Below, in pieces: positions 5,602 to 22,176 of a stretch of DNA of 64,000 nucleotides. A program made the translations under genes and the position numbers. Each line of letters begins with the position of its first letter. Position 1 is the stretch's first letter. The stretch comes from a virus. The notes below the pieces were generated by a model, which had not been told where the DNA came from, did not search any database, and saw only the letters and a list, made by a program, of their open reading frames with translations. The stretch is taken from the UHGV virus genome UHGV-1430452, one strand, 5' to 3'.

Positions 5602-8600
5602 GGCAGCTCTACATCTTCATCATCGAATGGAATTTCCTCAGGAGATCCTTCCGGTATGTTCATGAAGTCTGGTAAATGAGAATCTCTAAAAGGAGGTTCA
5701 TGCCGATCTGAAGCATCCCAAGGCGGAGTACCAACATATGGATCGTCTGATATGAACCACTCAGCGTCTCCGTATTGACCAATAGTTTCAAGAGCATCAT
5801 CCACAAGCTTTCGATAATATGAACGATCAATATTTTCTTCATTTCCCGGAGACATCATTAACTCGGATTCAAGCCAACGGAAACCAGTTGTTCCTGTAGC
5901 TGCATAATATTTACCGTTCTGTTCTCGCATCAATAGTCCTCCACCCTTTCCAGGCTTAACCGGACAAAATTGCCCAACTTTACCTACGAAATGATAGTCA
6001 TGACCTTCAGCTATTAAATCGTTTAATCTTCGACACTCACTTTCGAAAGTTGTGTCCGATAACTTACCTTTCCTGTACTTATCTTCAAGTTTGGATAGTT
6101 CTTTTTCATACTCGGATACATCTGGAAGTTTTTCGTTCATATCCAAATATAAAGCAGATTTTACTGAGAATGCTTCGCACATATCTTTCAACTCAATTGG
6201 TTCTTTACTGAACAGTGTTTTAAATACATACGGAACTGCAAACTGTTTTCCAGTAGCTGTCCATTCTCCGGCATTCTTTCCATCTTTAAACCTAGCCACG
6301 TACACAGCATCATTTACTAAACAGAATTTTTCAAAGTTAGCCTCTGTTTCAAATGTATATCCGTATTCTTTACCGAATTTGGTTACGAAATCAATAATAT
6401 CAGGAGTAGCATCGGGTATCTTTATGGAATCTGTCTTGATATGACAAACAGTAAATCCTCGTTTCTGAACTTCTCTTTTCAATAATGTCATGAAGAGAGC
6501 TCCTCTTTTGGCAACAATGTTATCCTTATTTCTAGGATCTCTAAATTCATTTACGAAGCCAGCTGATGTCAAACCATAAATGGAATTGATAACAATCTTA
6601 AGTGCCTGCGCTAAATCAGCAGCCTGTTCTTCATTTAAGTATGGTTTCAACGCTCCACCTAATAATTGTCCAGCTGTTTCAAAGTCTTTATGCTTAATTG
6701 CAACACGAGCTTTTACAATATCCTCAAACCGTTTTGTATATTCTGGTCCAAATAGACATTCGAATATAATACTGTGAGGATGCTGAGAAGCAATGTCTCC
6801 ATCCCATACATTACCGTAATGCCCAGGTTCAGAGTAAACCCGACCGCCTTCTCCAATGGCTTCGCCTAAATATGTTGATTTACCAAACTCAAAAGTATAG
6901 CCTTTAAAGAATGGAAGAATGCTATAACCTTCTGGAAGCTTTTCGCCAGGAACGTAAGATCGATATAATGGAAGACCCTCAGAATCAAATACTCTGAAAT
7001 CATAATCATCTCCGAATTTAATTCTATATTCATCATAACGATCTGAGCTAACCGGTTCCGCCAAGTATCTATAGTTGAATACATTCTGCGGTTTTTTATT
7101 ATTTCCAAATATAATTCTTTTAGAAAGAGTATTTGTCGTATCATTAACTGTAACGTTTGTAATATCATGTAAGAGTTTTACAAGATCAACCTGAATCTGT
7201 CTAGCAACAAAGTCTGCTTTTCTTGCATTGAATACAGCTTCCGTCGCAATGACATCATTATCGCAATACTCAGCAACCTTTGCCCATAATTCTTCTGGAA
7301 CTGGTTGATCCCAAGGAAGACCAAGCTCTTGATGATGAATACCCAGTTCAATCTCCCATTTCTTTAAACTCTGTTTCACAGTTGACATATCATATACATC
7401 AATGTAACCAAGATTATATGCCTCACCAAACATGCCATTATCACGGCTTCCCTTTGGAGCATTAATAATTCTTTGAGATAACTTATATATTTCCTCATTT
7501 GTGTATCCCATAAGTCTAGCATAAATGATATGTCTGTCGTATTTACGTCCATTAAAATCAACAAGTTTAAACTTTAGAAGATTTTCTATTTCTGCTGGTG
7601 TAGGATTAATTAATCTAACTACTGTTTTTCCTTCTCCAGCAAACTTATAGTTTACCAAAAATAAATTTGGGAATACCTCACAATCATAGAATACAAGATC
7701 GTCAGTATCACCCTCATTACTTGTCTCTGAAGCCTCTTCACTCTTAAACGCCATCTGATTAACTAACTTCAAACACTCATCAGCCTGGTTACTACTACTC
7801 GCCGCCAAAGCAAATACAGCATTTTTCATATCAGACACATCATATCCAATACCACTCTCATAAGCCTCATCCAAAAGTTTCTTAATCATTTGAATACTTG
7901 GAGCTGTGTTACCCATAATTTCTTTATTCAGATGTTTCTTAAGAACGGATCTCAAATATTTCTCATTCTTAATACCATCAAAGTTAATCACATTTTTCAC
8001 CTCTTTCAACGGAAGACCTGAGCTAATTGTACGAATAACAAGATTGACACACTTAGTAAGTTTTCTTCTAAGAGATGTTTTACCGGTAAATACCTTAATC
8101 TCGATATCCTCATCAAATATACGACTTAATTCACTCACATCACCGTTATAAATATAATGAAGATGAATACCTCCACCACTTTTGCTTAACTCAGCATATG
8201 TTGGAGGCCATTTACTAGCTGCTTCAAGATTCTTCTCGAAACATTTATTACCATTCTCGTCCTTAATATCAAAGTCAATAACTACATGATTTTCAGGGAC
8301 CTTGACGTAATGAAGTTTTGATGTGTCAAGTTCTGATAGGGTAGTTGAAACTTCATCCCATGGCTTCGTCGGAGTTTCTTTTGAAGTAGCATATTGAGCT
8401 GGACAATCAGAACATTCTTTATCAAAAATAGACTCCTGTTCTTCAAATATAAGCCAGCTCTCAGTTTTCTCATCTCCAATAGGTTTCTCTGCTTTAACCT
8501 TTTTCTTCCCACCAATAGAGTCTTCGAAAATATCAGTCTTAAAACCGTCGTAATAACTCAGCAGCTTACTTCCATCTTCTTTCTCCACCTTCTCATCAAA

Positions 8601-9818
8601 TTCCAAAAAATAGTTTCTCAACTCGTCTTTGAATTTTGTCTTAGAAAATGGATACGGCACTTTTGCTTCCTCACAGTAGTTTTTATACATCTCCCATGCT
8701 GCTTTTAGCGTAGTACCATCTTCTTTCTTGAAGACACTGAATGAATCACATACGAAGTTATAAAAGTCATTAGAAGCCATAAGCATGTCCTTCGGAGCGT
8801 AAGTATCGTAATACTCTGGATCTTCTTTAAAGACTTGTAAACAATGATATGCGATTGCTCCCAACTCAAAATCAACCTGTTTGGTCAATCTACGATATTC
8901 TCGAATCGGTATCTTGTTTCCAGTAGGACGAACGTCAATCAAACGCCTTAGTAAACCAGACTTAGCATCAGTGATCTTAACAGGTGTGTTTGTACCCATA
9001 AATAAAAAACATTTGAATCTTGTTTCATATTGTCCTTTAAATTTTTCATTCATGGTCATTATCTCGTGTGAAATCACCGAGTTTAAGCGCGTATTATCTT
9101 CGATTTTTGATAAATCACCATCATGTTGTATCGCTACAAGAGGGTTATTCTTAAACGGTTCCAGAGCGAAAACATTATTCGGATTACCCAAAGCTTTTGC
9201 GTCAAAAGAACAACAATATCCTTCAAATAATTTCTCGATAATATTTATGATAGTTGATTTACCAGTACCACCAGCTCCGTAAAGCACCAGGAACTTTTGA
9301 AGTATTTTTGATTCCCCAGATACAACGGAGCCGATAGCCCATTCTATTTTACGTCGTTCTTCTTCGGAATATAGAGTACCGATGAGTTTATCCCATGCAG
9401 AAATATCGCCAGGTTCGAGAGGATACGGGAGTCTCTTGCTTGCGAAATTCTCTCTGCTTAATTCTGTGTTTGAAAATATAAGTTCATCATCGAGTACAGC
9501 AAAGTTATCACGCATCTGTTTCTGACAATATTTATGGAACTTATCGATTGAGCCACTGTCAGCATCCCACATATACTTAATTACAGGAGTACCTTCAAGA
9601 CGTCCTTCATTTTCAGCGACATATCTATCAAGTTCTCTATCTACAAGACGGGTTACATCGTCTTCATCTGTACTCCACATCTTTCGATCTTCATCCCAGA
9701 TAGCGTAAAAGTCCCTACCTCGAATCATGAGATCTTTAGATTTCAACATTTTGAACTTAGGAGAAACATCAACACTGCTTTTATTCGTCTTCGTTGATAC
9801 TGTCATGAAGTCCAACAT
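5592..9818 (-). CDS. fused replication protein: SF3-type P-loop helicase + AEP primase-like + family-B DNA polymerase with 3'-5' exonuclease
   Basis: Walker A LVLYGAGGTGKST; primase-like VIDFDIKD and GGGIHLHYIYNG; exo-like FYDCEVF and YCDNDV; PolB motif B KIVINSIYG; motif C HIKTDSIKI. Confidence 0.8.
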   Translation of the reverse strand: MLDFMTVSTKTNKSSVDVSPKFKMLKSKDLMIRGRDFYAIWDEDRKMWSTDEDDVTRLVDRELDRYVAENEGRLEGTPVIKYMWDADSGSIDKFHKYCQKQMRDNFAVLDDELIFSNTELSRENFASKRLPYPLEPGDISAWDKLIGTLYSEEERRKIEWAIGSVVSGESKILQKFLVLYGAGGTGKSTIINIIEKLFEGYCCSFDAKALGNPNNVFALEPFKNNPLVAIQHDGDLSKIEDNTRLNSVISHEIMTMNEKFKGQYETRFKCFLFMGTNTPVKITDAKSGLLRRLIDVRPTGNKIPIREYRRLTKQVDFELGAIAYHCLQVFKEDPEYYDTYAPKDMLMASNDFYNFVCDSFSVFKKEDGTTLKAAWEMYKNYCEEAKVPYPFSKTKFKDELRNYFLEFDEKVEKEDGSKLLSYYDGFKTDIFEDSIGGKKKVKAEKPIGDEKTESWLIFEEQESIFDKECSDCPAQYATSKETPTKPWDEVSTTLSELDTSKLHYVKVPENHVVIDFDIKDENGNKCFEKNLEAASKWPPTYAELSKSGGGIHLHYIYNGDVSELSRIFDEDIEIKVFTGKTSLRRKLTKCVNLVIRTISSGLPLKEVKNVINFDGIKNEKYLRSVLKKHLNKEIMGNTAPSIQMIKKLLDEAYESGIGYDVSDMKNAVFALAASSSNQADECLKLVNQMAFKSEEASETSNEGDTDDLVFYDCEVFPNLFLVNYKFAGEGKTVVRLINPTPAEIENLLKFKLVDFNGRKYDRHIIYARLMGYTNEEIYKLSQRIINAPKGSRDNGMFGEAYNLGYIDVYDMSTVKQSLKKWEIELGIHHQELGLPWDQPVPEELWAKVAEYCDNDVIATEAVFNARKADFVARQIQVDLVKLLHDITNVTVNDTTNTLSKRIIFGNNKKPQNVFNYRYLAEPVSSDRYDEYRIKFGDDYDFRVFDSEGLPLYRSYVPGEKLPEGYSILPFFKGYTFEFGKSTYLGEAIGEGGRVYSEPGHYGNVWDGDIASQHPHSIIFECLFGPEYTKRFEDIVKARVAIKHKDFETAGQLLGGALKPYLNEEQAADLAQALKIVINSIYGLTSAGFVNEFRDPRNKDNIVAKRGALFMTLLKREVQKRGFTVCHIKTDSIKIPDATPDIIDFVTKFGKEYGYTFETEANFEKFCLVNDAVYVARFKDGKNAGEWTATGKQFAVPYVFKTLFSKEPIELKDMCEAFSVKSALYLDMNEKLPDVSEYEKELSKLEDKYRKGKLSDTTFESECRRLNDLIAEGHDYHFVGKVGQFCPVKPGKGGGLLMREQNGKYYAATGTTGFRWLESELMMSPGNEENIDRSYYRKLVDDALETIGQYGDAEWFISDDPYVGTPPWDASDRHEPPFRDSHLPDFMNIPEGSPEEIPFDDEDVELPWN

Positions 9819-10038: not shown

Positions 10039-10593
10039 CTAAACAAAAGTATCTAAATACCATAACATTTGAATCCAGATTTCAAATTTACGTAAGTCAT
10101 GATCGCAATTCTTAACTCTGAATAATCCACCGCGGCCGTCGGGTTCATATTCACGTTTGAGAAATGTGTTGATCACTTCTCTAACATACTTTTTATCAAA
10201 CCTGGAATCATACATACCGCCCAAACCGAGATTTACGATCATCTTCCAGAACCATTGTCCTGTTCTATCGCCGACACTCGGATCGTCCATAATATCTTCG
10301 CAACGAATTGCAAGAGCTATTATCATTTCTAGGATACTACATGGACGAGATAACATATCGACGATAACTTCTCGGCTTTCAGGGCTGTATATTTCATAAG
10401 CAAACCGACTTCTCAGATTTTCTCCGTCAGTTTCTCTGTTCTCATCTTTTGGGATGCTGTATCTGAATTCAATCTCATGTAAATATTCCAAAAGCTTTTT
10501 ATATGAATTTGCTTTGGCATATCTACCACTGCATACCAGATTATACATCCACTCGAAATATTCTATCTCAATTTCAGTCCTCGTCACCGCCAA
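10039..10593 (-). CDS. hypothetical protein
   Basis: 184-aa ORF. Confidence 0.45.
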   Translation of the reverse strand: MAVTRTEIEIEYFEWMYNLVCSGRYAKANSYKKLLEYLHEIEFRYSIPKDENRETDGENLRSRFAYEIYSPESREVIVDMLSRPCSILEMIIALAIRCEDIMDDPSVGDRTGQWFWKMIVNLGLGGMYDSRFDKKYVREVINTFLKREYEPDGRGGLFRVKNCDHDLRKFEIWIQMLWYLDTFV

Positions 10594-11167
10594 CTACCTC
10601 GCTGTAACTTCCGTAATCTCTAAGGATTTCGTAATATGACTTAAAATTAGGATTTTTGATATACACAGTATCGTCTTCATACTCTCCGAAATGGGAAGCG
10701 AAATCCTCTCCTACCATCTCGTCAATATTACCAATTATTCTGTCACGTTCATCCGCGAGCACTCCATCACCTTCATAATATGTCAGAGTGATCATCGGAT
10801 AATCCTGCTCCCATGTCTCTTCTGGAGCAATTACTTCAGGTCCGCCCATGTCATCTGCTTCCTCCTTTTCTTTCTCTTTCATAGCCTGCTCGTTAATATA
10901 ACCGAGCTCCTGTACTTTATCTCTGATTTCCTGAACAGTAAGTTTATCCGGATTTTCAATACCATCTTTTAAACCTTCCGTTAAAGCCTCTCCAACTTTT
11001 TTACAAGCTTTGCTCTCAGAATAGCGATCCCTAAGGAATTCATTCTCTTCGGTTTTGTCAGCAATGATCTGCTCGTACTTGGTTTTAACTAACTTCCATG
11101 TTACTACCGAACCGATTGCACCTCCAGCTAAGAATATCATTCCTTTAATTAATAAATTCTTGTTCAT
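10574..11167 (-). CDS. membrane-anchored acidic protein
   Basis: N-terminal TM helix (IFLAGGAIGSVVTW) then acidic soluble region. Confidence 0.45.
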   Translation of the reverse strand: MNKNLLIKGMIFLAGGAIGSVVTWKLVKTKYEQIIADKTEENEFLRDRYSESKACKKVGEALTEGLKDGIENPDKLTVQEIRDKVQELGYINEQAMKEKEKEEADDMGGPEVIAPEETWEQDYPMITLTYYEGDGVLADERDRIIGNIDEMVGEDFASHFGEYEDDTVYIKNPNFKSYYEILRDYGSYSEVVGGDED

Positions 11168-12028: not shown

Positions 12029-12967
12029 TCAAATCATGTTGAGAATATCCCCATCCACATTGAAATCAAGAAGAATAGTTCTCTCATAACCGTTCACGAA
12101 GTTACGATTTGCCTCGTTGTAAGTGTTATAGATTCCGAAATCTACGAAATTATCACCTACTGGATGTTTCTCGTCATAAATCCATCCAACAATCTGACCT
12201 GCCTGTGTACGCGGGATTCCGAGCATATCATATACTTCATTCAGGAACAGATGACCTTTCGTTTTCAACATGTCATTTGCATAACGCTGCTGATCTTTAA
12301 GGAACATTAGATTGAATTCAGGATCTTTAGTCCATCCTGTACATCCATCATCGAAGAATTTAGCATAATCGCTGTAACTGTCGAGAGTTGCTACATTTGC
12401 TGTTTTCTTAACAGTAGTTTCTGTACCATCTTCATTTACAACAGTCTCTTCGATTTCTTTTGCTTTGATGTTGTACTTCAGTTCTTTATCAAGCTCTTCA
12501 CCAAATCTCTCAATAACACGACCACGATATTCCTTGAAGCCTTTGTCAATAGTTGCATAAGCGGCTGCAAGTGCTAAGTTACGTTTACGAAGAATATGAT
12601 GACCACTAAGAATAGCAGCGATAGAAACTGTTCCAAGGATTACTGCTGGAGCATAAAGTTTTGCTACCTTTACGGCTGTTTGAGTATACATGATAGTTAA
12701 ATCTTTCTTACCATCTTCTTCTGTGTACTCTTTACCTTCTGGAACCATATCTGGATTTTCCATAAATTCATGAATTTTCTCGATTTTTTCTTTTGGCTCA
12801 GCGAGCACCTCATCGAGTTTAGTAGTTGCTTTACATGCCATTACAGCAGAGCCAACTACACCAACAATACCTGCGCCAACCAAGATTTCAGGGCTATGCT
12901 TTTTAAATTTAAAACCTACACGATGGAGGCTTCTAGTTACTGTGTTCATAATTTCTAATTTTGCCAT
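12029..12967 (-). CDS. membrane-anchored protein, paralogue family member A
   Basis: 312 aa; shares the N-terminal block (SPEIL..G.GI.G..S.V.A.KAT.K..E) and the YAPAVILG...RxLALAAAY block with 15042..15869 and 17330..18106. Confidence 0.5.
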   Translation of the reverse strand: MAKLEIMNTVTRSLHRVGFKFKKHSPEILVGAGIVGVVGSAVMACKATTKLDEVLAEPKEKIEKIHEFMENPDMVPEGKEYTEEDGKKDLTIMYTQTAVKVAKLYAPAVILGTVSIAAILSGHHILRKRNLALAAAYATIDKGFKEYRGRVIERFGEELDKELKYNIKAKEIEETVVNEDGTETTVKKTANVATLDSYSDYAKFFDDGCTGWTKDPEFNLMFLKDQQRYANDMLKTKGHLFLNEVYDMLGIPRTQAGQIVGWIYDEKHPVGDNFVDFGIYNTYNEANRNFVNGYERTILLDFNVDGDILNMI

Positions 12968-12969
12968 GA

Positions 12970-13416
12970 TTATTTACTCTCCTTTTCTAATTCTTTACAA
13001 AATTCCATTAAACTTTTACCGCGAATAAGAATATCGTTTGGTGTTAAAACAATATCAGGTTCCTTGCTCTTATTCGGATTCTCAACATATTCAATAAGCC
13101 TATTGAGATACCACTGAGCTTTCTTTAAGTCCTCAATGCCGTTTTTCTTTTTCCAGCGACATAAATACTTCATTGCATTACCTGTACAAAATGCTTCTAA
13201 TCCGTTAAGACCATCACAAAAGGCCTCGATAACGTCGATAGTTTCGAGACCTGATTTTGACTGATAATGATCCGGATGATTCACCATATCGTTTTTGGCA
13301 ACCCATTGTGTCGGAATACAAAAAGGATCATCGCTCGTTATACAGTGTTTACAAGCTTCCGATCCCATTGTACGACCACAATTGTCACAATCATATTTGC
13401 TTTTTGTTATACTCAT
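12970..13416 (-). CDS. DUF3310-like phage protein
   Basis: HPDHYQ...GLETIDVIEAF...NAMKYLCRWKKKNGIEDLKKAQWYLNRLIE pattern recalled from the DUF3310 family. Confidence 0.5.
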   Translation of the reverse strand: MSITKSKYDCDNCGRTMGSEACKHCITSDDPFCIPTQWVAKNDMVNHPDHYQSKSGLETIDVIEAFCDGLNGLEAFCTGNAMKYLCRWKKKNGIEDLKKAQWYLNRLIEYVENPNKSKEPDIVLTPNDILIRGKSLMEFCKELEKESK

Positions 13417-13426
13417 AGTTTTCCTT

Positions 13427-13735
13427 TCAAATATAATCTTTTACCTTCTTGCCAGTGTTATAAATCTCTCGTTCGATTCCTAGACCAAAAGGTAATCTAA
13501 CACTCTCTAATTCAGACAGCATTACATAACCCCATTCCCATTCAAAAAGATGACAATAACCGTATAATAACCAGTCACCGTCATCTTGTTTTTCACCTTC
13601 TGTAATTAACCAGGTACCTGTTCCAGTTGGATTAAAATACTTAACTACTACATCAGCTTCTTCCATCTTTCCTTCCTGAGAACCAATCGGATAATTTTCA
13701 AAAGTTTTCTCCAATTCATCGGTCATTAGTAGCAT
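13427..13735 (-). CDS. hypothetical protein
   Basis: 102-aa ORF, Trp-rich. Confidence 0.4.
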   Translation of the reverse strand: MLLMTDELEKTFENYPIGSQEGKMEEADVVVKYFNPTGTGTWLITEGEKQDDGDWLLYGYCHLFEWEWGYVMLSELESVRLPFGLGIEREIYNTGKKVKDYI

Positions 13736-13767
13736 CGTAACGACACATCCTTATTGTGTATTTTTAT

Positions 13768-14376
13768 TTAGTCAATTGGCATAGCTTTTGGCAACTTAAG
13801 AACATATCCATCTTTAATTCTCACAGTCTCGGCAGTACGAATGTTTGTCCATCCGTATTTGTTACTTGTATACGGTGCTGGAAGAGCAGCCATATCATAC
13901 ATATCAGCTACAGTAACAAAGCCATATGTGTCTATAAGATCTACCATCTGTTCTCTTACAGCCTCACATTCACCGCGAGAATCAAACACAAGATCATCAT
14001 AATCAAACCGGCCTTTTGCACGTAGACCACCATCACGTCGATCGTCTTTCTTATCGTCATAATAACTTCGGTAAGATATCTTGTTCCCAGTCTTACGCTT
14101 ATTACTTCCAGAACCGCCGTAAAGAATCATGTCGGCACCATCAGTAACAATATCCAAGATTGCTTTCTTAATTGCTGGAATCAAAACATCCAAGACAATA
14201 TATGATTTAACATTAGCTGCATCTTCGGAAATGAACATGCTTGCTAATTTACGTCCTTCGTTTTTCTTCGTTTTCACTTTACCATTAACAACTTTCTGCA
14301 CCCTCTTTTCTTTCGTAGGCGCTTCAGTTGCTTTTTCTTCTTTGCTCTTATGAGAATTCGGTTGATATTCTCTCAT
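13768..14376 (-). CDS. hypothetical protein
   Basis: 202-aa ORF with basic N-terminus. Confidence 0.45.
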   Translation of the reverse strand: MREYQPNSHKSKEEKATEAPTKEKRVQKVVNGKVKTKKNEGRKLASMFISEDAANVKSYIVLDVLIPAIKKAILDIVTDGADMILYGGSGSNKRKTGNKISYRSYYDDKKDDRRDGGLRAKGRFDYDDLVFDSRGECEAVREQMVDLIDTYGFVTVADMYDMAALPAPYTSNKYGWTNIRTAETVRIKDGYVLKLPKAMPID

Positions 14377-14390
14377 TTTCTTATCACCTC

Positions 14391-14594
14391 TTAATTAACC
14401 ATTTTGATTTCACCAGGCAATGTTATCCTCACACCTGGCAATAAATTTAATTGTTTCTTAGCCTGATAAGTTAAGTTACTCCTGGCTTTTTGTTTTGATG
14501 AAGCACTTGTTTCACCCTTCCAACGATCGATCATGCATTTATCAAACGACATTACAGGACCTTCGTATGTGTATTTGTCATACTCTTCGTTCAT
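14391..14594 (-). CDS. hypothetical protein
   Basis: 67-aa ORF. Confidence 0.35.
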   Translation of the reverse strand: MNEEYDKYTYEGPVMSFDKCMIDRWKGETSASSKQKARSNLTYQAKKQLNLLPGVRITLPGEIKMVN

Positions 14595-14666
14595 TGTTAC
14601 CTCCTAGAAACAAAAAGAGAAGAGTCCCATAATTGAGACCCGTCTCTTTTTCGAATACTTTAAATG

Positions 14667-14972
14667 TTATTTCTCGGCTGCTTCCTCGTCGATTTCTTCC
14701 TCGATAACGGATTCATCTTCAGGTTCATCAACCTCTTCAACCTCGACCCATTTCAGTCTTTTCTTGGCTTTCTTCTTTTTAGGCTGCTCGTCTTTCTTTT
14801 TGGATTTGATTTTCTTGTAAGCTGCTGCTCCTAATGCAACTGCTCCAGCAATCAATCCTACTGTCAGACCGATAGCCTTTCCAGATCCACCTTCTTCTAC
14901 TGAATAGTCTTCCGGCTCCAGGTCAATAACCTCAACCTCGTTATCCATTACTTCGTCTTTGATTTCGCTCAT
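14667..14972 (-). CDS. acidic membrane protein (start moved to the ATG with an RBS)
   Basis: AGGAGG 8 nt upstream of the ATG at 14970-14972; central TM helix; the ORF-track start at 15014 overlaps the motif. Confidence 0.45.
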   Translation of the reverse strand: MSEIKDEVMDNEVEVIDLEPEDYSVEEGGSGKAIGLTVGLIAGAVALGAAAYKKIKSKKKDEQPKKKKAKKRLKWVEVEEVDEPEDESVIEEEIDEEAAEK

Positions 14973-15009
14973 AGCAAGATCCTCCTTTAAAATAATTTTA
15001 AGTATTTTC

Positions 15010-15036
15010 TTCATAAAGCACTGTGTATTTTTCGCG
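15010..15036 (-). promoter_or_regulatory. conserved early-gene motif copy (promoter-like)
   Basis: ttcataaagcactgtgtatttttcgcg upstream of 14667..14972. Confidence 0.45.
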
Positions 15037-15041
15037 TATGA

Positions 15042-15869
15042 TTAATAGTAGCTATCGAAACCATATTCCGGAGGCATCAGATGATCAATAACAATACACG
15101 GTTCATTATCTTCCGTAATTTGAGCACTATATCTCACATCGATTTTGCCTTTATCGATTCTCCAACCGATGCTATTACCAACTTCGGTATGCTTAAGACC
15201 AATTTCGTCATAGAAATCATTCAGAGAAATATACATCTCGTTACCGTTGATCATTCTCTCATTAAGAGTAAGAACAGCATTTTTAATCTTGTCGATATCC
15301 GATCTGAAATATCTGTCGGAATGACTGTCATAACACAACGTGTTACCTTTACCTGTCATGATAATCTGAGTGTCTGCAACCGGATGTTCTTCAACTTGCT
15401 TCTTAGCGACTTTATCTCTGATGTTATTTTCCTTCTTCTCTCCGATAGTCTCTACCACTTTCTCTCTGTAGTCAGACAGTGCTGTTGTAGATAACTGATA
15501 TGCTGTTGCCAATGCTGCGTTACGTCTTACATGTACGGAATTAGCACCGATAAGACAAGCGACTGACGCAATGCCAGTGATAGCTGCTGGAATATAAGGT
15601 TTCCAAGCTGCTTTTACTGTTTCGACAGGTGTGAGATTTAAAGCGTTTCTTTCGTCTTCTTCTGTGAAAATACCGCCTTCATGAGCTTCTTTCTCTTTAA
15701 ACTTCTTCTCTTCCTCGATTAACTCCATAGCTTTTGGTGTTGCTTTTACTGCAAGCACAACAGTAGATATCATACCTGCGATACCAATGCCAGTAAGAAT
15801 TTCCGGACTGCGTTTTTTCATTACATATTTTGCAGTGTTTAAAAATTTTGTTACATTTGGTTTGTTCAT
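15042..15869 (-). CDS. membrane-anchored protein, paralogue family member B
   Basis: 275 aa; same N-terminal and central blocks as 12029..12967 and 17330..18106. Confidence 0.5.
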   Translation of the reverse strand: MNKPNVTKFLNTAKYVMKKRSPEILTGIGIAGMISTVVLAVKATPKAMELIEEEKKFKEKEAHEGGIFTEEDERNALNLTPVETVKAAWKPYIPAAITGIASVACLIGANSVHVRRNAALATAYQLSTTALSDYREKVVETIGEKKENNIRDKVAKKQVEEHPVADTQIIMTGKGNTLCYDSHSDRYFRSDIDKIKNAVLTLNERMINGNEMYISLNDFYDEIGLKHTEVGNSIGWRIDKGKIDVRYSAQITEDNEPCIVIDHLMPPEYGFDSYY

Positions 15870-15958
15870 TTTTTATCTCCTTTCATGAACAGTTAAATTG
15901 TTTTTACCAAAAATCCCACTCGGGAAAATTTTGATCTTGAAAAAATAGAAATCGAAAA

Positions 15959-16030
15959 GAAACAGTGTAGGACTCGAACCCACAACCTACAGATATAAGT
16001 CTGTTGCTCTACCAATTGAGCTAACTGTTT
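15959..16030 (-). tRNA. tRNA with non-canonical 6-nt anticodon loop (anticodon unresolved; UAU or UUA are the options)
   Basis: Minus-strand fold: 7-bp acceptor AAACAGT/ACTGTTT, D-arm GCTC-AATTGGTA-GAGC, T-arm GTGGG-TTCGAGT-CCTAC; anticodon stem ACAGA/TCTGT encloses only CTTATA. Confidence 0.6.
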
Positions 16031-16080
16031 CTTCTCATAATAGCGCTTGTAAATTTCGCGAATATAGATCTTCAGAAACA

Positions 16081-16106
16081 AAAAAGAAGAACCCCGAAGG
16101 ATTCTC
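16081..16106 (-). terminator. intrinsic terminator
   Basis: Minus-strand GAAUCC-UUCG-GGGUUC hairpin followed by UUCUUUUUUG, between small gene and tRNA. Confidence 0.5.
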
Positions 16107-16277
16107 CTAGACTTTCTTCTGAAGCTCAGAAACTGCTTTCTTCAACTCTTCAAACTCCTTTTCTTTTTTCTGATCTGATAATGCACCTGCTATAGCCATA
16201 ATACCTGTTACTACAACACCTGCATATTTTCCGACAGACTTCAGAAGCGGATTATTGATAATACCTTTGAATTTCAT
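16107..16277 (-). CDS. small membrane peptide (56 aa)
   Basis: Hand-translated MKFKGIINNPLLKSVGKYAGVVVTGIMAIAGALSDQKKEKEFEELKKAVSELQKKV; GGAGA RBS. Confidence 0.4.
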   Translation of the reverse strand: MKFKGIINNPLLKSVGKYAGVVVTGIMAIAGALSDQKKEKEFEELKKAVSELQKKV

Positions 16278-16295
16278 TTTTCTCGTCTCCTTTCT

Positions 16296-16327
16296 TCATT
16301 CCATTAAAGGAAATGTTTTTGTCGCGA
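16296..16327 (-). promoter_or_regulatory. conserved early-gene motif copy (promoter-like)
   Basis: ttcattccattaaaggaaatgtttttgtcgcga. Confidence 0.45.
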
Positions 16328-16364
16328 TACCGGTTTCGCTATATCAAAATATCATCGTTTATCG

Positions 16365-16853
16365 TCACCCGTGTATGGGTAAATCCATTTTGATTTTGTC
16401 AGGATTCATAATGAGGATACTATCGCAGTCCCAGCCATACAGATCCCAATATAACTGATGATCAGCTGATAAATTTAACTCGATGGCATCATAGCCAAGT
16501 TCAATGCATTTCTCGAAATCTATCAGTGTACTTATTGATTTCCATACCGGGTCAGCAATTGTTGGAAGTTCCTTTAATTTTTCTACGGAATCTATAACGA
16601 ATATATTGGCTTCCGGAAGAGTGAATATGAAACTATTTTCTTCAATACATTCACGAAAATTTTCTCTTTCACACCAGTCTTTCCAACCTAATTTGGCATC
16701 TATCGGACTAGCCCAAAGACCTCCTCTAGGTTTAACCCAGCATTGCTCATTTTGAATAGGTTTAAATAAGTTTGGATTAAAAGTTGCATGTCCGTAATGA
16801 ATATAAATCTTGTCTTGCATATTACTATCCTTTCGTTCAAAAACATATGTCAC
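16365..16853 (-). CDS. hypothetical protein
   Basis: 162-aa ORF. Confidence 0.45.
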   Translation of the reverse strand: MTYVFERKDSNMQDKIYIHYGHATFNPNLFKPIQNEQCWVKPRGGLWASPIDAKLGWKDWCERENFRECIEENSFIFTLPEANIFVIDSVEKLKELPTIADPVWKSISTLIDFEKCIELGYDAIELNLSADHQLYWDLYGWDCDSILIMNPDKIKMDLPIHG

Positions 16854-16878
16854 TTAGTAACAAAAAGAAAAGAGGCCC

Positions 16879-17082
16879 CTATTTCAGGACCTCAAATTTC
16901 TCTTTTTTATTTTTCTTGATTTTATTCTCAACGGATTCTTTCCATTGATTCGCTTTAGTTGCCACTGCCTGTCTGACTTCTGGAATAGCAAGTGCCGAAC
17001 CGACAACCGTTACTGCCGGCACAACAATCTGTCCAATCCAAAGTCTTACTTCTCTCATAGCATCAATATTTTTGCGTTTCAT
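16879..17082 (-). CDS. small membrane protein
   Basis: 67 aa with TM helix; AGGAGG RBS. Confidence 0.4.
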   Translation of the reverse strand: MKRKNIDAMREVRLWIGQIVVPAVTVVGSALAIPEVRQAVATKANQWKESVENKIKKNKKEKFEVLK

Positions 17083-17112
17083 AGTTTTATCCTCCTTTAA
17101 AAATATAATCTT

Positions 17113-17140
17113 TTCATTAAAGGCGTTGTTTATTTAGCGA
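17113..17140 (-). promoter_or_regulatory. conserved early-gene motif copy (promoter-like)
   Basis: ttcattaaaggcgttgtttatttagcga. Confidence 0.45.
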
Positions 17141-17316
17141 GTGTAATGGATATGCTCATTGTTTAATTCGTCGAGATGTTTAATAAAATCTAAATATCTT
17201 TTATTTCGTCTATTCTCCACAAAGTTTATAACTAACCAAGCAATCCCTACGATAGGCAAGCCAACGAATACTAATAGAAATAGTAAGCATGTAATCATAG
17301 AAACAAGCGTATTCAT
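17134..17316 (-). CDS. small membrane protein (start moved to ATG with RBS)
   Basis: AAAGGAG RBS before MNTLVSMITCLLFLLVFVGLPIVGIAWLV... Confidence 0.4.
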   Translation of the reverse strand: MNTLVSMITCLLFLLVFVGLPIVGIAWLVINFVENRRNKRYLDFIKHLDELNNEHIHYTR

Positions 17317-17329
17317 AAATCTTCTCCTT

Positions 17330-18106
17330 TCAATACTCTTCGTAATCAATGAACGGCTCTGTGAAATCTACAATATAACATTCAATACCGTCGTCCATTT
17401 CTACTTTTGTATGGTGGAAATATAGCCAACCATCCCAGTACATTTCATACATCTGAGCTGCGGACCAACCCATAAATTCACCGTAATCCTGTCGATCAAT
17501 CTCTAGTAAATCGTAATAATCGTTTAAAGATGCACCACCGGATTGAGATAGCATTTTATTAATCTCATACTCTGCTCTCAATTGAGTTTCTTTCGTCACA
17601 CGGTAATAACGTTTGGAATATTCATCGTAGAATAGTGTTTTGCCATCCTCGTATTCGTCGTCATATTCTTCTTTGTCTTCTTCCTCGTAATGGTCTTTTG
17701 CTACAGCAGCACGAATGAGTTTGTCTCCGTCTTCACCATATAACTTTTTAACTTTGTTTTTGTACTCTTTGTGAGTTTGGTCTAGTAAGGCATAAGCAGA
17801 TGCGATGGCTGCTTGGGAATGTTTGTTTAATAGATTCGCGCCAAATATGCAAGCTAGGGTTCCTGTTCCAATCAATAAGGAAGGAATATATGTTGGTCCT
17901 GCTACTCGAATAGTCTCCCATTTTGTTAATTCATCTCCTTTCTCTTCTTCAGCTAGTTCAATAAGTTCCATTGCTTTCGGAGTAGCTTTAACCGCCATTA
18001 CAGCTGTACCTACCACTCCGGCAGCTCCTAATACTGTTAATATAGTAGAGCTGTTTTTCTTTACGAATCTTTTCGAAACTGTTAGTAAGTCATTCATTTC
18101 CAGCAC
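17330..18106 (-). CDS. membrane-anchored protein, paralogue family member C
   Basis: 258 aa; N-terminal block KKNSSTILTVLGAAGVVGTAVMAVKATPKAMELIE matches members A and B. Confidence 0.5.
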   Translation of the reverse strand: MLEMNDLLTVSKRFVKKNSSTILTVLGAAGVVGTAVMAVKATPKAMELIELAEEEKGDELTKWETIRVAGPTYIPSLLIGTGTLACIFGANLLNKHSQAAIASAYALLDQTHKEYKNKVKKLYGEDGDKLIRAAVAKDHYEEEDKEEYDDEYEDGKTLFYDEYSKRYYRVTKETQLRAEYEINKMLSQSGGASLNDYYDLLEIDRQDYGEFMGWSAAQMYEMYWDGWLYFHHTKVEMDDGIECYIVDFTEPFIDYEEY

Positions 18107-18216
18107 GCTCCTTGGCGATAAATTTGGTAAAAATAAAAAGAGAAAGAAAAGAGTCAGCTTGTTGTGTAAACCAAGTCTAACTCAATTCTTTTTGTCATTA
18201 TCCGAAATAACAATAT

Positions 18217-18246
18217 CCCATAACAGGTGATGTAATTTTCGCGAAT
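18217..18246 (-). promoter_or_regulatory. conserved early-gene motif copy (promoter-like)
   Basis: cccataacaggtgatgtaattttcgcgaat. Confidence 0.45.
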
Positions 18247-18248
18247 CC

Positions 18249-18470
18249 CTACTGCTCAAAAAATAAAACTACATCTACCGGATCTTTGAAGTGCTGCTCC
18301 TCCACTACTTCTTTAAATTCTTCAAATGATTCCGGTTCGTATTCTTGTAAATATAAAATCTGTTCAAGCAATCTTCCGTAAAATCCTTGAGAATTAGATA
18401 GCATTTTTACCACACCAATGACTTGTTCAACATCATAACCGTCTGCTTTCTTTTCCATAGCGTTTGCCAT
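18249..18470 (-). CDS. small acidic protein (start moved to ATG)
   Basis: AAAGGAG RBS 7 nt before the ATG at 18468-18470; the ORF-track start is a GTG upstream. Confidence 0.4.
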   Translation of the reverse strand: MANAMEKKADGYDVEQVIGVVKMLSNSQGFYGRLLEQILYLQEYEPESFEEFKEVVEEQHFKDPVDVVLFFEQ

Positions 18471-18645
18471 TTTGAACACTCCTTTAATTGGTTTTTGATA
18501 AAAATAAAAAGAGAATACAATGACTTCAGGGTCGGCCCAACGAAAACCGTTGCCCGGTGGGTAGCATGTTTTATTACGTTATTACGTGCCGCTACGCCTT
18601 CGTGTCTCACCACTGGATTTCCACCAGTATCTATCCATTGCTTTC

Positions 18646-18675
18646 TCTCATAATAGGTGATGTAATTTTCGCGAA
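18646..18675 (-). promoter_or_regulatory. conserved early-gene motif copy (promoter-like)
   Basis: tctcataataggtgatgtaattttcgcgaa. Confidence 0.5.
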
Positions 18676-18702
18676 TAGAAAAAGAAAATGCCTAGTTTTT
18701 AA

Positions 18703-18966
18703 CTAGACAAATTCTTTAATAATTATTGTTCCACCAACTACATCGATTTTTATTTTATTCATCGCTTTCAACATACTAGCCACTTTTTGCACTGGTAACT
18801 TACTTGTGAAACCATAGAACACCAAGTCGCCCATGGTATATACATGCCCTACTGAATACTTAACTTCAATATCGGCTGTATATTTGCCAAGGCAATCCAT
18901 TGCTCCTAAATTTTTCACAACTTCGTTTTTATTCGCGCATAAAGTAATTTCATATTTAGTAAACAT
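18703..18966 (-). CDS. hypothetical protein
   Basis: 87-aa ORF; AGGAGG RBS. Confidence 0.45.
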   Translation of the reverse strand: MFTKYEITLCANKNEVVKNLGAMDCLGKYTADIEVKYSVGHVYTMGDLVFYGFTSKLPVQKVASMLKAMNKIKIDVVGGTIIIKEFV

Positions 18967-18997
18967 ATAAATTCCTCCTTATTCGATTTCATTGTTT

Positions 18998-19028
18998 TTC
19001 TCATAATAGGTGATGTAATTTTCGCGAA
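18998..19028 (-). promoter_or_regulatory. conserved early-gene motif copy (promoter-like)
   Basis: ttctcataataggtgatgtaattttcgcgaa. Confidence 0.5.
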
Positions 19029-19050
19029 AACAAAAGAGAAAGGGCCCATG

Positions 19051-19191
19051 TTACTGAGCCACTTTCGCTTTCTTATGATTTTTAACTGCTTTCTTAGAAA
19101 CCTCTACTGCTTTATTCACTGCATCACTTGCCAAACTACCGACTACCAATCCGCCAGCAATCTCAATAATGTGTCTAACTAAAACATTCAT
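19051..19191 (-). CDS. small membrane peptide (46 aa)
   Basis: Hand-translated MNVLVRHIIEIAGGLVVGSLASDAVNKAVE...; AGGAGG RBS 8 nt upstream. Confidence 0.4.
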   Translation of the reverse strand: MNVLVRHIIEIAGGLVVGSLASDAVNKAVEVSKKAVKNHKKAKVAQ

Positions 19192-19224
19192 TTTAGATTC
19201 CTCCTGTTAAGCAATTTATTATCT

Positions 19225-19255
19225 TTCCATAATAGGACTTGTAATTTTCGCGAAT
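19225..19255 (-). promoter_or_regulatory. conserved early-gene motif copy (promoter-like)
   Basis: tttccataataggacttgtaattttcgcgaa. Confidence 0.5.
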
Positions 19256-19284
19256 TAAAAGAAAAGACACCGTGTTTCAGGTGC

Positions 19285-19512
19285 CTAATCCTCTGAATCA
19301 ACCATTTGTTCAATTTTCAGTAATACTTTCTGATCAATTTCTCCATCCGCATTGATATGAAATCGTATTTTACCATCCTTCATCTCAGCTTCTATCTCAC
19401 TAATACGGATGTCTGGTTTGACTCCAATATTTTTGTATATAGCTCTAGATATAAGTTTGGCTACCATACCTCTCATAAATCTAGTAGATAATTTAATTTT
19501 CATTTCGTCCAT
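19285..19512 (-). CDS. hypothetical protein
   Basis: 75-aa ORF; AGGAGG RBS. Confidence 0.45.
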   Translation of the reverse strand: MDEMKIKLSTRFMRGMVAKLISRAIYKNIGVKPDIRISEIEAEMKDGKIRFHINADGEIDQKVLLKIEQMVDSED

Positions 19513-19525
19513 AATTACCTCCTCC

Positions 19526-19557
19526 TTCTAGGTTGTTTCCTATAATAGGGGAAGTTT
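19526..19557 (-). promoter_or_regulatory. conserved early-gene motif copy (promoter-like)
   Basis: tttcctataataggggaagtttaagtcgcgaa. Confidence 0.5.
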
Positions 19558-19598
19558 AAGTCGCGAAAACAAAAGAAAGAGCAGTGGGTGACACCGCT

Positions 19599-19706
19599 CT
19601 AACTGTTTCTCAAAAATCGAATGAGAATCCATACAAGCCATAATCCTCCGGTTGCAAATACTAATACAAAGTCGATAAGCAATCCGAATAATCCACGCTT
19701 TTTCAT
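19599..19706 (-). CDS. small hydrophobic peptide (35 aa)
   Basis: Hand-translated MKKRGLFGLLIDFVLVFATGGLWLVWILIRFLRNS; AGGAGAAG RBS. Confidence 0.35.
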   Translation of the reverse strand: MKKRGLFGLLIDFVLVFATGGLWLVWILIRFLRNS

Positions 19707-19731
19707 GATTATCTTCTCCTTTCATTTTCTT

Positions 19732-19758
19732 TTCACAATAGGAGAAGTTTTTATCGCG
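19732..19758 (-). promoter_or_regulatory. conserved early-gene motif copy (promoter-like)
   Basis: ttcacaataggagaagtttttatcgcg. Confidence 0.45.
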
Positions 19759-19809
19759 TGCATTATCAGTTCCTTCAAATACAAAATAAAAGAGACCAAT
19801 CGGCCTCTC

Positions 19810-19959
19810 TTACATGTTTCGTTTAGAAAGTTCTTCTGCTACCTTCTTTGCAATCTTTTCATCCAATAACTTATCTGTACTTTGTTTCCCTGCGAATGTT
19901 AATCCCGCACTAACAATAGCTGTTATAAGCTTTGCAATTCTAATTACTTTTGGTGACAT
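19810..19959 (-). CDS. small membrane peptide (49 aa)
   Basis: Hand-translated MSPKVIRIAKLITAIVSAGLTFAGKQSTDKLLDEKIAKKVAEELSKRNM; AGGAGG RBS. Confidence 0.4.
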   Translation of the reverse strand: MSPKVIRIAKLITAIVSAGLTFAGKQSTDKLLDEKIAKKVAEELSKRNM

Positions 19960-19972
19960 AAATATACCTCCT

Positions 19973-20000
19973 TTCTATAATAGAAGAGGTTTAAATCGCG
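19973..20000 (-). promoter_or_regulatory. conserved early-gene motif copy (promoter-like)
   Basis: ttctataatagaagaggtttaaatcgcg. Confidence 0.45.
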
Positions 20001-20350
20001 CGTCTATCGAAGCAAGTTTCCCATCGTTCTCGCTTAACTGGCTTCATTTTCATAGTCCACATCATTTGTCGGACCGTTACGGTGGGATATAAACCGTTCT
20101 CAGGTTCTCCCGATCTATCCTCGAAGAACTCCAGGAATCTTTCATGTAAATATAAAGTGTCTGTCAGCCACGGATCAATCTCGCCCCACCAGGTATTTTT
20201 CGTCGCTGGATCATATCGCTGCTGAATAACAGCTAGTCCTTTTCGTCCCATTTTGAATAAAGTACATTTACTGTAAACTGGATGATCACATTCATAAGTT
20301 TCTCCGTACATCGATACATAAACTTTTGGCTTTTCGTAGTGATAACGCAT
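19991..20350 (-). CDS. hypothetical protein
   Basis: 119-aa ORF. Confidence 0.45.
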   Translation of the reverse strand: MRYHYEKPKVYVSMYGETYECDHPVYSKCTLFKMGRKGLAVIQQRYDPATKNTWWGEIDPWLTDTLYLHERFLEFFEDRSGEPENGLYPTVTVRQMMWTMKMKPVKRERWETCFDRRAI

Positions 20351-20378
20351 ATTACTATTATCCTTTCTTTAACTTTAG

Positions 20379-20408
20379 TTATATAACTTTTGTTTAAACT
20401 CTCGCGTT
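20379..20408 (-). promoter_or_regulatory. degenerate copy of the early-gene motif
   Basis: Minus-strand AACGCGAGAGTTTAAACAAAAGTTATATAAC keeps the CGCGA, AAACA and TTATAT elements. Confidence 0.3.
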
Positions 20409-20446
20409 AGGAAATATAAAAGAAGAAAAAAAAAGAAAAGACTATG

Positions 20447-20523
20447 GGAATAGCGCGGGATTCGAACCCACGACGTTGAGTTTCCTCTTATTCTTCCATT
20501 AGAACTAACCGTCTTAACTATTC
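20447..20523 (-). tRNA. tRNA-like element (good acceptor and T-arm; no canonical anticodon stem found)
   Basis: Minus-strand GAATAGT/GCTATTC acceptor, T-arm GTGGG-TTCGAAT-CCCGC, D-arm-like AGA-CGGTTAGT-TCT; central 29 nt purine-rich with only a short GAG-GAAA-CTC hairpin. Confidence 0.4.
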
Positions 20524-20570
20524 CAGAGACTTCTTCCGATATATTGCTATACGGGAATTGTTCTCTTCTT

Positions 20571-20600
20571 TTCTATAATAGGAAATGTTTATTTAGCGAA
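20571..20600 (-). promoter_or_regulatory. conserved early-gene motif copy, upstream of the tRNA-like element
   Basis: ttctataataggaaatgtttatttagcgaa, ~45 nt from the 5' end of the tRNA-like element. Confidence 0.45.
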
Positions 20601-20643
20601 AGAAAATAGCCCAGGCGTTTAACCCGAGCTAATTCTCTTAAAC

Positions 20644-21012
20644 TTATTCGTTACCATTGAGTTTCTCAATAGCTTCAACCTTCCTGCTGTCAAACATCGT
20701 AGAATTTACAATACTCATCACAGCTTTGTAATATGTTTTCGGCTGATCCTTCTTGAGCAACTCTATCGCCTGAACTTTACGACTATCAAACATGCTGCTG
20801 TTCATTATCGAAGCTACCGCACTGTCATAATCTGCTGTGCTAAATATATCCGCTAATAAATCAACTTCATATGTGTCCTGTTTTCGTTTCTTTTCACGCA
20901 ATACAACTGCCACAATTGGAATCGCAATACCAATCCCATTTGCTACATATTCTGTGATTTTCCATAAACTCTCTTTTGTTTTCTCGCTAGTTAAAACTTC
21001 TTTGATTTTCAT
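20644..21012 (-). CDS. membrane protein with internal duplicated segment
   Basis: 122 aa; TM helix; SIMNSSMFDSRKVQAIELL and SIVNSTMFDSRKVEAIEKL repeats. Confidence 0.45.
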   Translation of the reverse strand: MKIKEVLTSEKTKESLWKITEYVANGIGIAIPIVAVVLREKKRKQDTYEVDLLADIFSTADYDSAVASIMNSSMFDSRKVQAIELLKKDQPKTYYKAVMSIVNSTMFDSRKVEAIEKLNGNE

Positions 21013-21035
21013 ATCAATAACCTCCTATAAGTTTA

Positions 21036-21066
21036 TTCTCATAACAGGCGTTGTAATAATAGCGAA
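21036..21066 (-). promoter_or_regulatory. conserved early-gene motif copy (promoter-like)
   Basis: ttctcataacaggcgttgtaataatagcgaa. Confidence 0.45.
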
Positions 21067-21112
21067 AAAGAAGAGCCTAAGTCATTTCGACTCAAGCCCT
21101 TCCATTTTGAAA

Positions 21113-21496
21113 TTACTTTTTTGGGAGTAACTTCTGAATGAATCCTCGACCCATTATTGTTGTGATGGTTCCAGTCTCTTCGAATTTGATAGACTTGATT
21201 GTGCCCCAGATAGTAACCGCTGTCGGTATAACAATACCCGCTCCTGTTAAGCAATTCTTAACAACTCGATCTTTTCGTTCATCTTTAAGCTGCTCTGCTC
21301 TTAATTCAGCATCAACATTTTGCTGATCCTTTTTAAGTTCTTGTTCAGCCTTAATTTTCTCAAGTTCGATTGCTCGATCACATAACTTTGTCAGGCCGTC
21401 TACCGTATTTTTGTACTTATCTGTACCTACTTCAAGTTTTCCTAACTCTTCGAATTCGTCCTGAATCTCATCTTTTAATAATGTTTCAATACTCAT
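21113..21496 (-). CDS. membrane protein with coiled-coil N-terminus (start moved to ATG with RBS)
   Basis: AGGAGG before MSIETLL...; C-terminal TM helix. Confidence 0.45.
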   Translation of the reverse strand: MSIETLLKDEIQDEFEELGKLEVGTDKYKNTVDGLTKLCDRAIELEKIKAEQELKKDQQNVDAELRAEQLKDERKDRVVKNCLTGAGIVIPTAVTIWGTIKSIKFEETGTITTIMGRGFIQKLLPKK

Positions 21497-21520
21497 TTTG
21501 AACTCCTCCTTATATTCGTA

Positions 21521-21549
21521 TTTCATAATAGGGAATGTTATTTTTGCGA
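21521..21549 (-). promoter_or_regulatory. conserved early-gene motif copy (promoter-like)
   Basis: tttcataatagggaatgttatttttgcga. Confidence 0.45.
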
Positions 21550-21747: not shown

Positions 21748-21766
21748 TACGCTACTTCCTCCTTTC

Positions 21767-21789
21767 TTCAATAGAATTGTTTTATCGAA
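21767..21789 (-). promoter_or_regulatory. weak copy of the early-gene motif
   Basis: ttcaatagaattgttttatcgaa. Confidence 0.3.
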
Positions 21790-22144: not shown

Positions 22145-22176
22145 AATTTATCCTCCTTAAATTTAAAGTTTTATGT

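Follow-up and report, generated by a model that had tools for sequence, protein, structure and literature searches.

Three dispersed DUF6353 paralogues of a temperate siphovirus belong to ancient subfamilies inherited with a four-in-one replicase

The window analyzed here is a 64,000-nucleotide (nt) stretch of the virus genome UHGV-1430452 and is part of a temperate siphovirus. Its early region carries three dispersed genes for predicted membrane-anchored proteins, termed paralogues A, B, and C (Table 1), which are members of DUF6353 (Pfam PF19880; PHROG 2152), a catalogued family without an assigned function. With high confidence, the three paralogues represent three old, non-redundant subfamilies that were inherited along with the replicase of one phage lineage. 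DUF6353 is a core rather than an accessory gene of this lineage, being present in 251 of its approximately 253 genomes; the lineage includes lactococcal phage 1706, Faecalibacterium phage Oengus (FP_oengus), and a large actinophage supercluster. Taken as a whole, the best explanation combines these core, replicase-linked subfamilies with co-assembly of their products into a membrane platform, a combined reading that we place somewhat short of an even chance.

An earlier note, made from the DNA letters alone, had described three open reading frames (ORFs) in this region as paralogues with a common membrane anchor, and all three were recovered, each on the minus strand and each encoding two predicted hydrophobic helices. 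A, B, and C can be aligned end to end, with pairwise BLASTP identities of 30–32% over 242–267 residues (E 4e-17 to 3e-37; 30% for A and B); their similarity is confirmed to be far beyond chance, and they are true paralogues. The blocks named in the earlier note are the most similar stretches of the three proteins, with 47–58% identity in the first predicted transmembrane segment (TM1) and 45–100% in the KATPKA block. The proteins had been thought to diverge after these blocks, but their C-terminal domains are still 22–32% identical, and none of them has an unrelated tail. When the parts beyond the second segment (TM2) were compared alone with SEG filtering on, matches at E 2e-7 to 6e-14 were obtained. 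These matches and the BLASTP similarity rule out an artefact of hydrophobic, low-complexity sequence. A recent tandem-like duplication is likewise ruled out, by the pairwise divergence and by the clades of the tree described below. A six-frame scan with a hidden Markov model found exactly three full DUF6353 copies in the window, scattered, as first noticed, amid unrelated small genes of the early (lytic) region. For C, the ATG at 18097 is most likely the start codon, since an AGGAG motif lies 10 nt upstream of it and only 1 nt from the alternative GTG at 18106, which would extend the protein to 258 aa (ORF 17330..18106).

The earlier note could not assign these proteins to a family; profile searches did so for all three. 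Against the Pfam DUF6353 model (253 positions; gathering threshold, 25 bits), A scored 292.1 bits (E 4.9e-87, model positions 2–252), B 298.8 bits (E 4.3e-89, positions 1–252), and C 198.8 bits (E 1.4e-58, positions 1–246). PHROG 2152 was matched over approximately positions 2–271 of 273, with E-values of 4e-93 for A, 1.7e-91 for B, and 8.5e-67 for C. In length and architecture, the window proteins are the same as the rest of the family, with no difference in kind. DUF6353 comprises 12,203 representatives at 50% identity, and the top 150 of these are all 249–336 aa long with a single full-length match and no fusions, so that the architecture looks uniform. At least 8000 clusters at 90% identity match B; among the 120 matches listed for B, none bears an informative name, the sole source label being “hypothetical protein”. 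No match for the DUF6353 proteins was found in NCBIfam, and none of A, B, and C matched a known replication or morphogenesis protein. The literature searched contained no mention of DUF6353, and functional data on these genes were absent from the literature searched on DUF6353, ReqiPepy6/ReqiPoco6, phage 1706, and FP_oengus.

The distribution of the family follows that of the replicase closely. Among 50,697 phage records, DUF6353 occurs in 251 and the replicase, searched for by tblastn, in 253, with an identical breakdown by genus. The B family alone accounts for 482 matches in 246 records of annotated phage genomes, typically two per genome. B is approximately 40% identical to the “first copies” of Gordonia phages, and A shares 41–45% identity with the “second copies” found in phages of Gordonia and Arthrobacter and with FP_oengus gp22. 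Both values exceed the identity between A and B themselves, which indicates that the subfamilies are ancient. In a neighbor-joining tree of copies from ten phages, three clean clades were obtained, from which the A-type, B-type, and C-type subfamilies are defined in this analysis. The A-type and B-type clades each mix phages of Actinobacteria and Firmicutes, and the C-type clade, sister to the B-type, contains gut Firmicutes phages only. For example, A groups with FP_oengus gp22, Gordonia phage Nadmeg gp59, and Rhodococcus phage ReqiPoco6 gp069, and C with FP_oengus gp15 and a copy from MT835485. Each copy thus clusters with copies from distant phages at the conserved module position and not with the paralogues of its own genome.

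The three genes are embedded in a conserved module with the replicase and three partner genes, named here after their PHROG families (phrog_4079, phrog_4695, and phrog_4678). Scanning a single genome for each bacterial species yielded 183 relatives, and the best 80 loci were used; as this sample was drawn from a B-centered alignment, it is biased toward Clostridia relatives of B. Nearly all of these loci come from Lachnospiraceae or other Clostridia, including Hungatella, Enterocloster, Blautia, and Roseburia. The single-strand order C, B, phrog_4079, A, phrog_4695, phrog_4678, replicase was present in essentially every locus of sufficient length. Independent support for a fixed order is provided by actinophage loci, which lie outside the B-biased sample: phages of Gordonia, Rhodococcus, Arthrobacter, Microbacterium, and Streptomyces share the order B ... 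phrog_4079 ... A, phrog_4695, phrog_4678, replicase. No C-type copy was found in the actinophage loci examined, and most of these phages have two copies. Among the 80 Clostridia loci, 54 have three copies, and in 15 a fourth copy, which is A-like, lies upstream of C; those with fewer than three are mostly short contigs. The fourth copy, which the window does not have, was seen in loci L014, L016, L020, L023, L024, L046, L050–L052, L055, L061, and L077–L080.

Known phages already display this arrangement. In FP_oengus, gp15, gp18, and gp22, annotated in RefSeq as “DUF6353 family protein”, are dispersed and follow one another as C, B, and A do in the window, and each window copy is orthologous to one of them, although the orthologue identities are only about 25–45%. 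The phrog_4079, phrog_4695, and phrog_4678 homologues and the large replicase of this Faecalibacterium phage occupy the same positions relative to the DUF6353 copies as in the window, with the latter two partners and the replicase following them. The two phages differ in that FP_oengus has a genome of 58 kb and a tyrosine integrase, whereas the window carries a large serine integrase, and a protein identical to B is encoded on contigs of up to 96.7 kb. In another example, ReqiPoco6 (gp054 and gp069) and Nadmeg (gp50 and gp59) each have one copy of the B type and one of the A type, placed upstream of the replicase at the corresponding positions. The depositors of ReqiPoco6 recorded that gp054 and gp069 resemble each other and gp51 of phage 1706, and labelled them “membrane protein”. 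Such actinophage pairs mostly comprise two copies, compared with three in the window.

The earlier note had also called the paralogues “diversifying”. Ratios of nonsynonymous to synonymous substitution rates (dN/dS), computed from up to 18 non-overlapping close pairs, had medians of 0.063 for A, 0.067 for B, and 0.093 for C, compared with 0.046 for the replicase and 0.04–0.10 for the partners. Medians of this size rule out that description, which is also at odds with the old orthologous clades, the fixed order, and the level of conservation: the three genes are under strong purifying selection and are conserved about as well as the neighboring core genes. Across the 53 loci with all seven module genes, the median identity to the window proteins was 54.8% for A, 52.0% for B, and 42.2% for C, and 61.7% for the replicase, 54.4% for phrog_4678, 49.5% for phrog_4079, and 37.5% for phrog_4695. 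Within a single pair of phages, the synonymous divergence (dS) of adjacent module genes can differ by up to approximately 20-fold. For example, in the pair L031/L048, dS was 0.06 for A, 0.32 for B, and 1.15 for C, and the pair L015/L029 is another such case. These unequal values point to gene-by-gene mosaic recombination that leaves the order of the module unchanged.

The architecture of the proteins, i.e., two helices, an acidic linker, and an alpha/beta domain, is as well supported as their evolutionary history, and we are highly confident of both. Each protein has two hydrophobic stretches of approximately 19 residues (residues 23–41 and 91–109 in B), and exactly two such stretches with conserved spacing were found in 219 of the 236 family members checked. 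Gly, Ala, Ser, and Thr are abundant in these stretches, which are only moderately hydrophobic (Kyte-Doolittle 1.5–2.1). The charged loop between them spans 33–56 residues and is roughly neutral overall; in paralogue A, this loop is longer, and the C-terminal domain carries an insertion. A conserved helix is predicted to follow the second hydrophobic segment. AlphaFold2, run on a 41-sequence alignment, predicted long helices through both segments that extend far past 20 residues, a charged, acidic linker of low confidence at approximately residues 126–171, and a confident C-terminal domain. Modelled alone, this domain of approximately 100 residues adopted a beta-beta-alpha-beta-alpha-beta-beta-beta arrangement (predicted local distance difference test score 87; predicted template-modelling score 0.79). 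The N-terminal tail has a net charge of about +5 and the C-terminal part one of -5 to -16, a distribution that weakly favors a hairpin with both termini inside (N-in/C-in) and a cytoplasmic C-terminal domain; the basic tail favors such a hairpin without proving it.

Structure-based searches provided few further leads. Profile searches of PDB sequences with DUF6353, phrog_4678, phrog_4695, and phrog_4079 found nothing, a Foldseek search of the whole DUF6353 model against the PDB returned only non-significant helical matches, and a BFVD search matched only uncharacterised phage proteins. Among the latter, the fold of the C-terminal domain occurs in shorter proteins, namely standalone proteins of approximately 105–111 aa and a 208-aa protein of Arthrobacter phage Qui, and small ORFs with this domain alone are present in phages Qui and HazuAndZazu. 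The C-terminal domain is thus reusable, as standalone and alternatively anchored versions exist.

Of the three partners, the phrog_4079 protein keeps the same position in phages of Actinobacteria and Firmicutes, and some phages have two copies of its gene. Its N-terminus is basic with one amphipathic or hydrophobic helix, unlike that of DUF6353. It may nevertheless carry a divergent DUF6353 C-terminal domain, a tentative assignment that draws on profile comparison. A profile-profile comparison (hhalign) of the two families gave a probability of 64% (E 6.6e-5, 36 columns), and the shared columns in phrog_4079 hold the motif G-x-V-T-V-x-D-x-Y-D ... Y-G-W; a single phrog_4079 sequence, a weak query, reached a probability of 9% against the profile of the C-terminal domain. 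The 208-aa Qui protein matched by this domain in BFVD (E 4e-3) was equated with the phrog_4079-like Qui gp85 by length only. The phrog_4695 protein has a layout analogous to that of DUF6353, with a transmembrane anchor, a variable charged linker, and a conserved C-terminal domain. The phrog_4678 protein has many invariant Trp, Arg, and Gly residues; a Pfam search with its homologues found nothing, and phrog_4695 is likewise without a Pfam or PDB relative in the searches made. In actinophages and gut phages alike, both genes are conserved immediately upstream of the replicase. The replicase itself is a homologue of GP55 of lactococcal phage 1706, which combines helicase, primase, polymerase, and exonuclease activities and carries out de novo DNA synthesis unaided (PMC12205980).

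From these features, a mechanism can be proposed in which the helices of each DUF6353 protein would form an N-in/C-in membrane hairpin that leaves the acidic domain in the cytoplasm. By means of their conserved, small-residue-rich helices, the non-redundant paralogues could then associate to form a hetero-oligomer. Such a complex, perhaps joined by the similarly built phrog_4079 and phrog_4695 proteins, might constitute a membrane-tethered platform that recruits a phage or host protein partner at the early or replication stage, for instance by localizing genome replication at the membrane. The C-terminal domains would act as cytoplasmic protein-binding modules, as their net acidic charge suggests binding of protein rather than DNA. 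Taken separately, a membrane platform serving the early or replication stage remains a tentative proposal and is rather improbable by our estimate. Its most specific form, in which A and B (and C, where present) with phrog_4079 and phrog_4695 make up a multi-subunit platform that tethers the four-in-one replicase or sequesters a host factor at the membrane, is unlikely.

Several observations weigh against the proposed platform. GP55 works alone in vitro, so that an accessory protein is not needed for catalysis (PMC12205980). The shared distribution of DUF6353 and the replicase may reflect mere vertical inheritance in one lineage, and the independent recombination of the module genes argues against tight co-adaptation. 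The lactococcal relatives appear to have a single DUF6353 copy, and an A–B heteromer would thus not be universal; phage P162 (Nevevirus), the only lactococcal relative examined locus-wide, has one copy. The topology drawn from charge is also ambiguous, because the Lys and Arg residues beside the helices are equal in number on the loop side and on the terminal side.

The closest functional analogy for a membrane platform of this kind is offered by p16.7 and p1 of Bacillus phage phi29. These are early, membrane-anchored replication organizers whose genes accompany those for replication and in which an anchor is followed by a helical region and a small C-terminal domain. DUF6353 shares with them an N-terminal anchor and an early gene in a replication module, but the analogy is limited to layout. 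It breaks down on homology, since no sequence or fold similarity of DUF6353 to p16.7 or p1 was detected, and on charge, since the strongly negative C-terminal part argues against p16.7-like DNA binding. Furthermore, DUF6353 has two hydrophobic helices, whereas p16.7 has one. The PolB domain of the 1706 replicase has itself been described as phi29-like (PMC12205980).

The earlier note had suggested superinfection-exclusion or host-envelope effectors, i.e., anchored paralogues that stop the entry of competitor DNA or adsorption, each with different targets. Predicted membrane proteins made early in infection would suit such a role, several paralogues could in principle broaden specificity, and the charge analysis fits more than one topology. 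Lytic phages can also carry exclusion genes, with T4 Imm and Sp as examples. Like DUF6353, lactococcal Sie2009, streptococcal Ltp, and T4 Imm are small phage-encoded, membrane-associated proteins. Genes of this type are accessory, and in temperate Gram-positive phages they are usually located in, and expressed from, the lysogeny module. DUF6353 shows neither a patchy distribution nor a place in the lysogeny module: it is core to its lineage, consists of ancient subfamilies in a fixed order, lies in a lytic operon divergent from the repressor and integrase genes, and evolves under purifying selection with no sign of an arms race. In addition, no PADLOC defence model was matched at E <= 1 by A, B, C, or the three module partners, and no annotated PHROG was matched by A, B, or C. 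An exclusion role is quite improbable on this evidence. Beyond the serine integrase and on the same strand, two 83-aa ORFs (26469..26968, plus strand) would be better candidates than the DUF6353 genes for exclusion or moron genes expressed from the prophage.

Membrane-active takeover or control of lysis timing, with the hairpins oligomerizing into a pore or a holin/antiholin-like regulator, was considered as well. Two small-residue-rich helices followed by a charged tail resemble the layout of class II holins, many small membrane proteins surround the DUF6353 genes in related phages, and C shows a faint, non-significant resemblance to Phage_holin_5_2 (E 0.2), the only holin-family match. Holins are usually about 60–150 aa long, unlike the DUF6353 proteins, which have 255–312 aa in the window and include a folded domain of 100 residues. 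The window also has a bona fide Hol44-type holin and an XhlA-like gene in a separate cassette, and the DUF6353 genes appear to be transcribed with early and replication genes rather than late ones, which makes such a role very unlikely. We give similarly little credence to a soluble helical scaffold, in which the hydrophobic helices would form a buried core and the proteins would act wholly in the cytoplasm. The moderate hydrophobicity and the composition of the segments, the AlphaFold2 helices that run far beyond 20 residues, and the positive charges that flank each helix on both sides would all fit such a scaffold, as would a weak likeness of the whole model to ESCRT-III/Vipp1-like helical hairpins. 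These fold matches are non-significant (E >= 1), the two hydrophobic stretches and their spacing are conserved across the family, and homologues have been labelled “membrane protein” by independent annotators.

DUF6353 represents viral dark matter on a very large scale, with 12,203 clusters at 50% identity and no function assigned. The gene set is core to a phage lineage that spans two bacterial phyla and includes common human-gut Lachnospiraceae prophages as well as phage Oengus, which has been found in as many as 40% of gut viromes (PMC5883640). We are not aware of an earlier description of the subfamily structure, of the synteny of these genes with the four-in-one replicase, or of the purifying selection on them. 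A paper on the shared ancestry of the lineage does not mention DUF6353 proteins (10.1101/842583). A vague “hypothetical membrane protein” can now be replaced by a defined module of ancient subfamilies under purifying selection, in synteny with an unconventional, recently characterized replicase, and Gordonia, Arthrobacter, Streptomyces, and Lactococcus are among the tractable hosts in which this module can be tested. These findings also illustrate that dispersed membrane paralogues of an early region are not necessarily arms-race genes. If correct, the proposed platform would represent a new class of phage replication organizer, found from soil actinophages to abundant Clostridia phages of the human gut.

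Table 1. Positions of the DUF6353 genes, their module partners, and other features of the window.
Feature	Position	Strand	Details
Paralogue A, A-type DUF6353	12029..12967	minus	312 aa; tight operon leading to replicase
Paralogue B, B-type DUF6353	15042..15869	minus	275 aa
Paralogue C, C-type DUF6353	17330..18097	minus	255 aa from ATG 18097; very acidic linker
B hydrophobic helix 1	~15747..15803	minus	predicted from hydropathy
B hydrophobic helix 2	~15543..15599	minus	predicted from hydropathy
B C-terminal alpha/beta domain	~15060..15341	minus	predicted by AlphaFold2
phrog_4079 protein	13768..14376	minus	202 aa, between B and A; PHROG 4079, E 1e-59
phrog_4695 protein	10574..11167	minus	197 aa; one N-terminal hydrophobic helix
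phrog_4678 protein	10039..10593	minus	184 aa, soluble; just upstream of replicase
Helicase-primase-PolB four-in-one replicase	5592..9818	minus	1408 aa; PHROG 4210, E 0; DUF5906
tRNA gene	15958..16031	minus	between C and B; Rfam RF00005, 62 bits
Repeated motif copy	16036..16061	minus	upstream of tRNA gene and B
Repeated motif copy	18219..18244	minus	upstream of C
CI-like repressor	24053..24649	plus	lysogeny module
Large serine integrase	24726..26312	plus	lysogeny module
Hol44-type holin	27976..28269		E 1e-11; separate lysis cassette adjoining tail genes

The genes of the module belong to a minus-strand lytic operon that runs from approximately 23.8 kb to the start of the window and is divergent from the lysogeny module (Table 1). 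Many small genes come first in this operon, followed by C, B, and A and then by the replicase and a single-strand annealing protein. The lysis cassette holds, besides the holin and the XhlA-like gene, a gene for a CBM5/12 protein, and A, B, and C sit away from both the lysogeny and the lysis genes. Between phrog_4079 and A, DUF3310 and DUF2958 genes are inserted on the minus strand (12970..13735); they are absent from this place in most of the related phages examined and thus represent variable cargo within the conserved module.

Two kinds of putative transcription signal are distributed unevenly along the operon. Terminator-like hairpins with T-runs are threefold enriched in the window (21 versus 7.0 +/- 2.7 expected), and nearly all of them lie on the minus strand between small early genes (14622..22725). 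None was found from 14.6 kb down to the replicase, i.e., from phrog_4079 to the replicase, a distribution that suggests that punctuated early units give way there to a single tight replication operon. A repeated motif of approximately 26–35 nt, TCGCGAAAATTACAnnnCCTATTATG on the coding strand (repeat family D1), is matched nine times, exclusively on the minus strand, when up to 3 mismatches are allowed, compared with 0.01 expected. In addition to the two copies listed in Table 1, it occurs at 18649–18674, 19002–19027, 19228–19253, 20574–20599, 21040–21065, 21524–21549, and 22453–22478, and more degenerate copies are also present. The motif usually follows a terminator-like hairpin and precedes the next small early gene, and few related loci contain its exact core. 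It resembles a reiterated early promoter that would be recognized by either a host sigma factor or the putative phage RNA polymerase of the lineage. No copy was found upstream of A. From the positions of the motif and the hairpins, B and C look like parts of short early units, and A would be co-transcribed with phrog_4079 and the replicase in the replication operon.

The tRNA gene between C and B is apparently transcribed in one unit with B. One base is missing from its anticodon loop (ACAGA-CUUAUA-UCUGU), and the gene was reported by ARAGORN as “tRNA-???” with the anticodon unassigned; it could be a degenerate tRNA or one for unconventional decoding. A “tRNA-OTHER” is annotated in the analogous early region of Rhodococcus phage ReqiPoco6.

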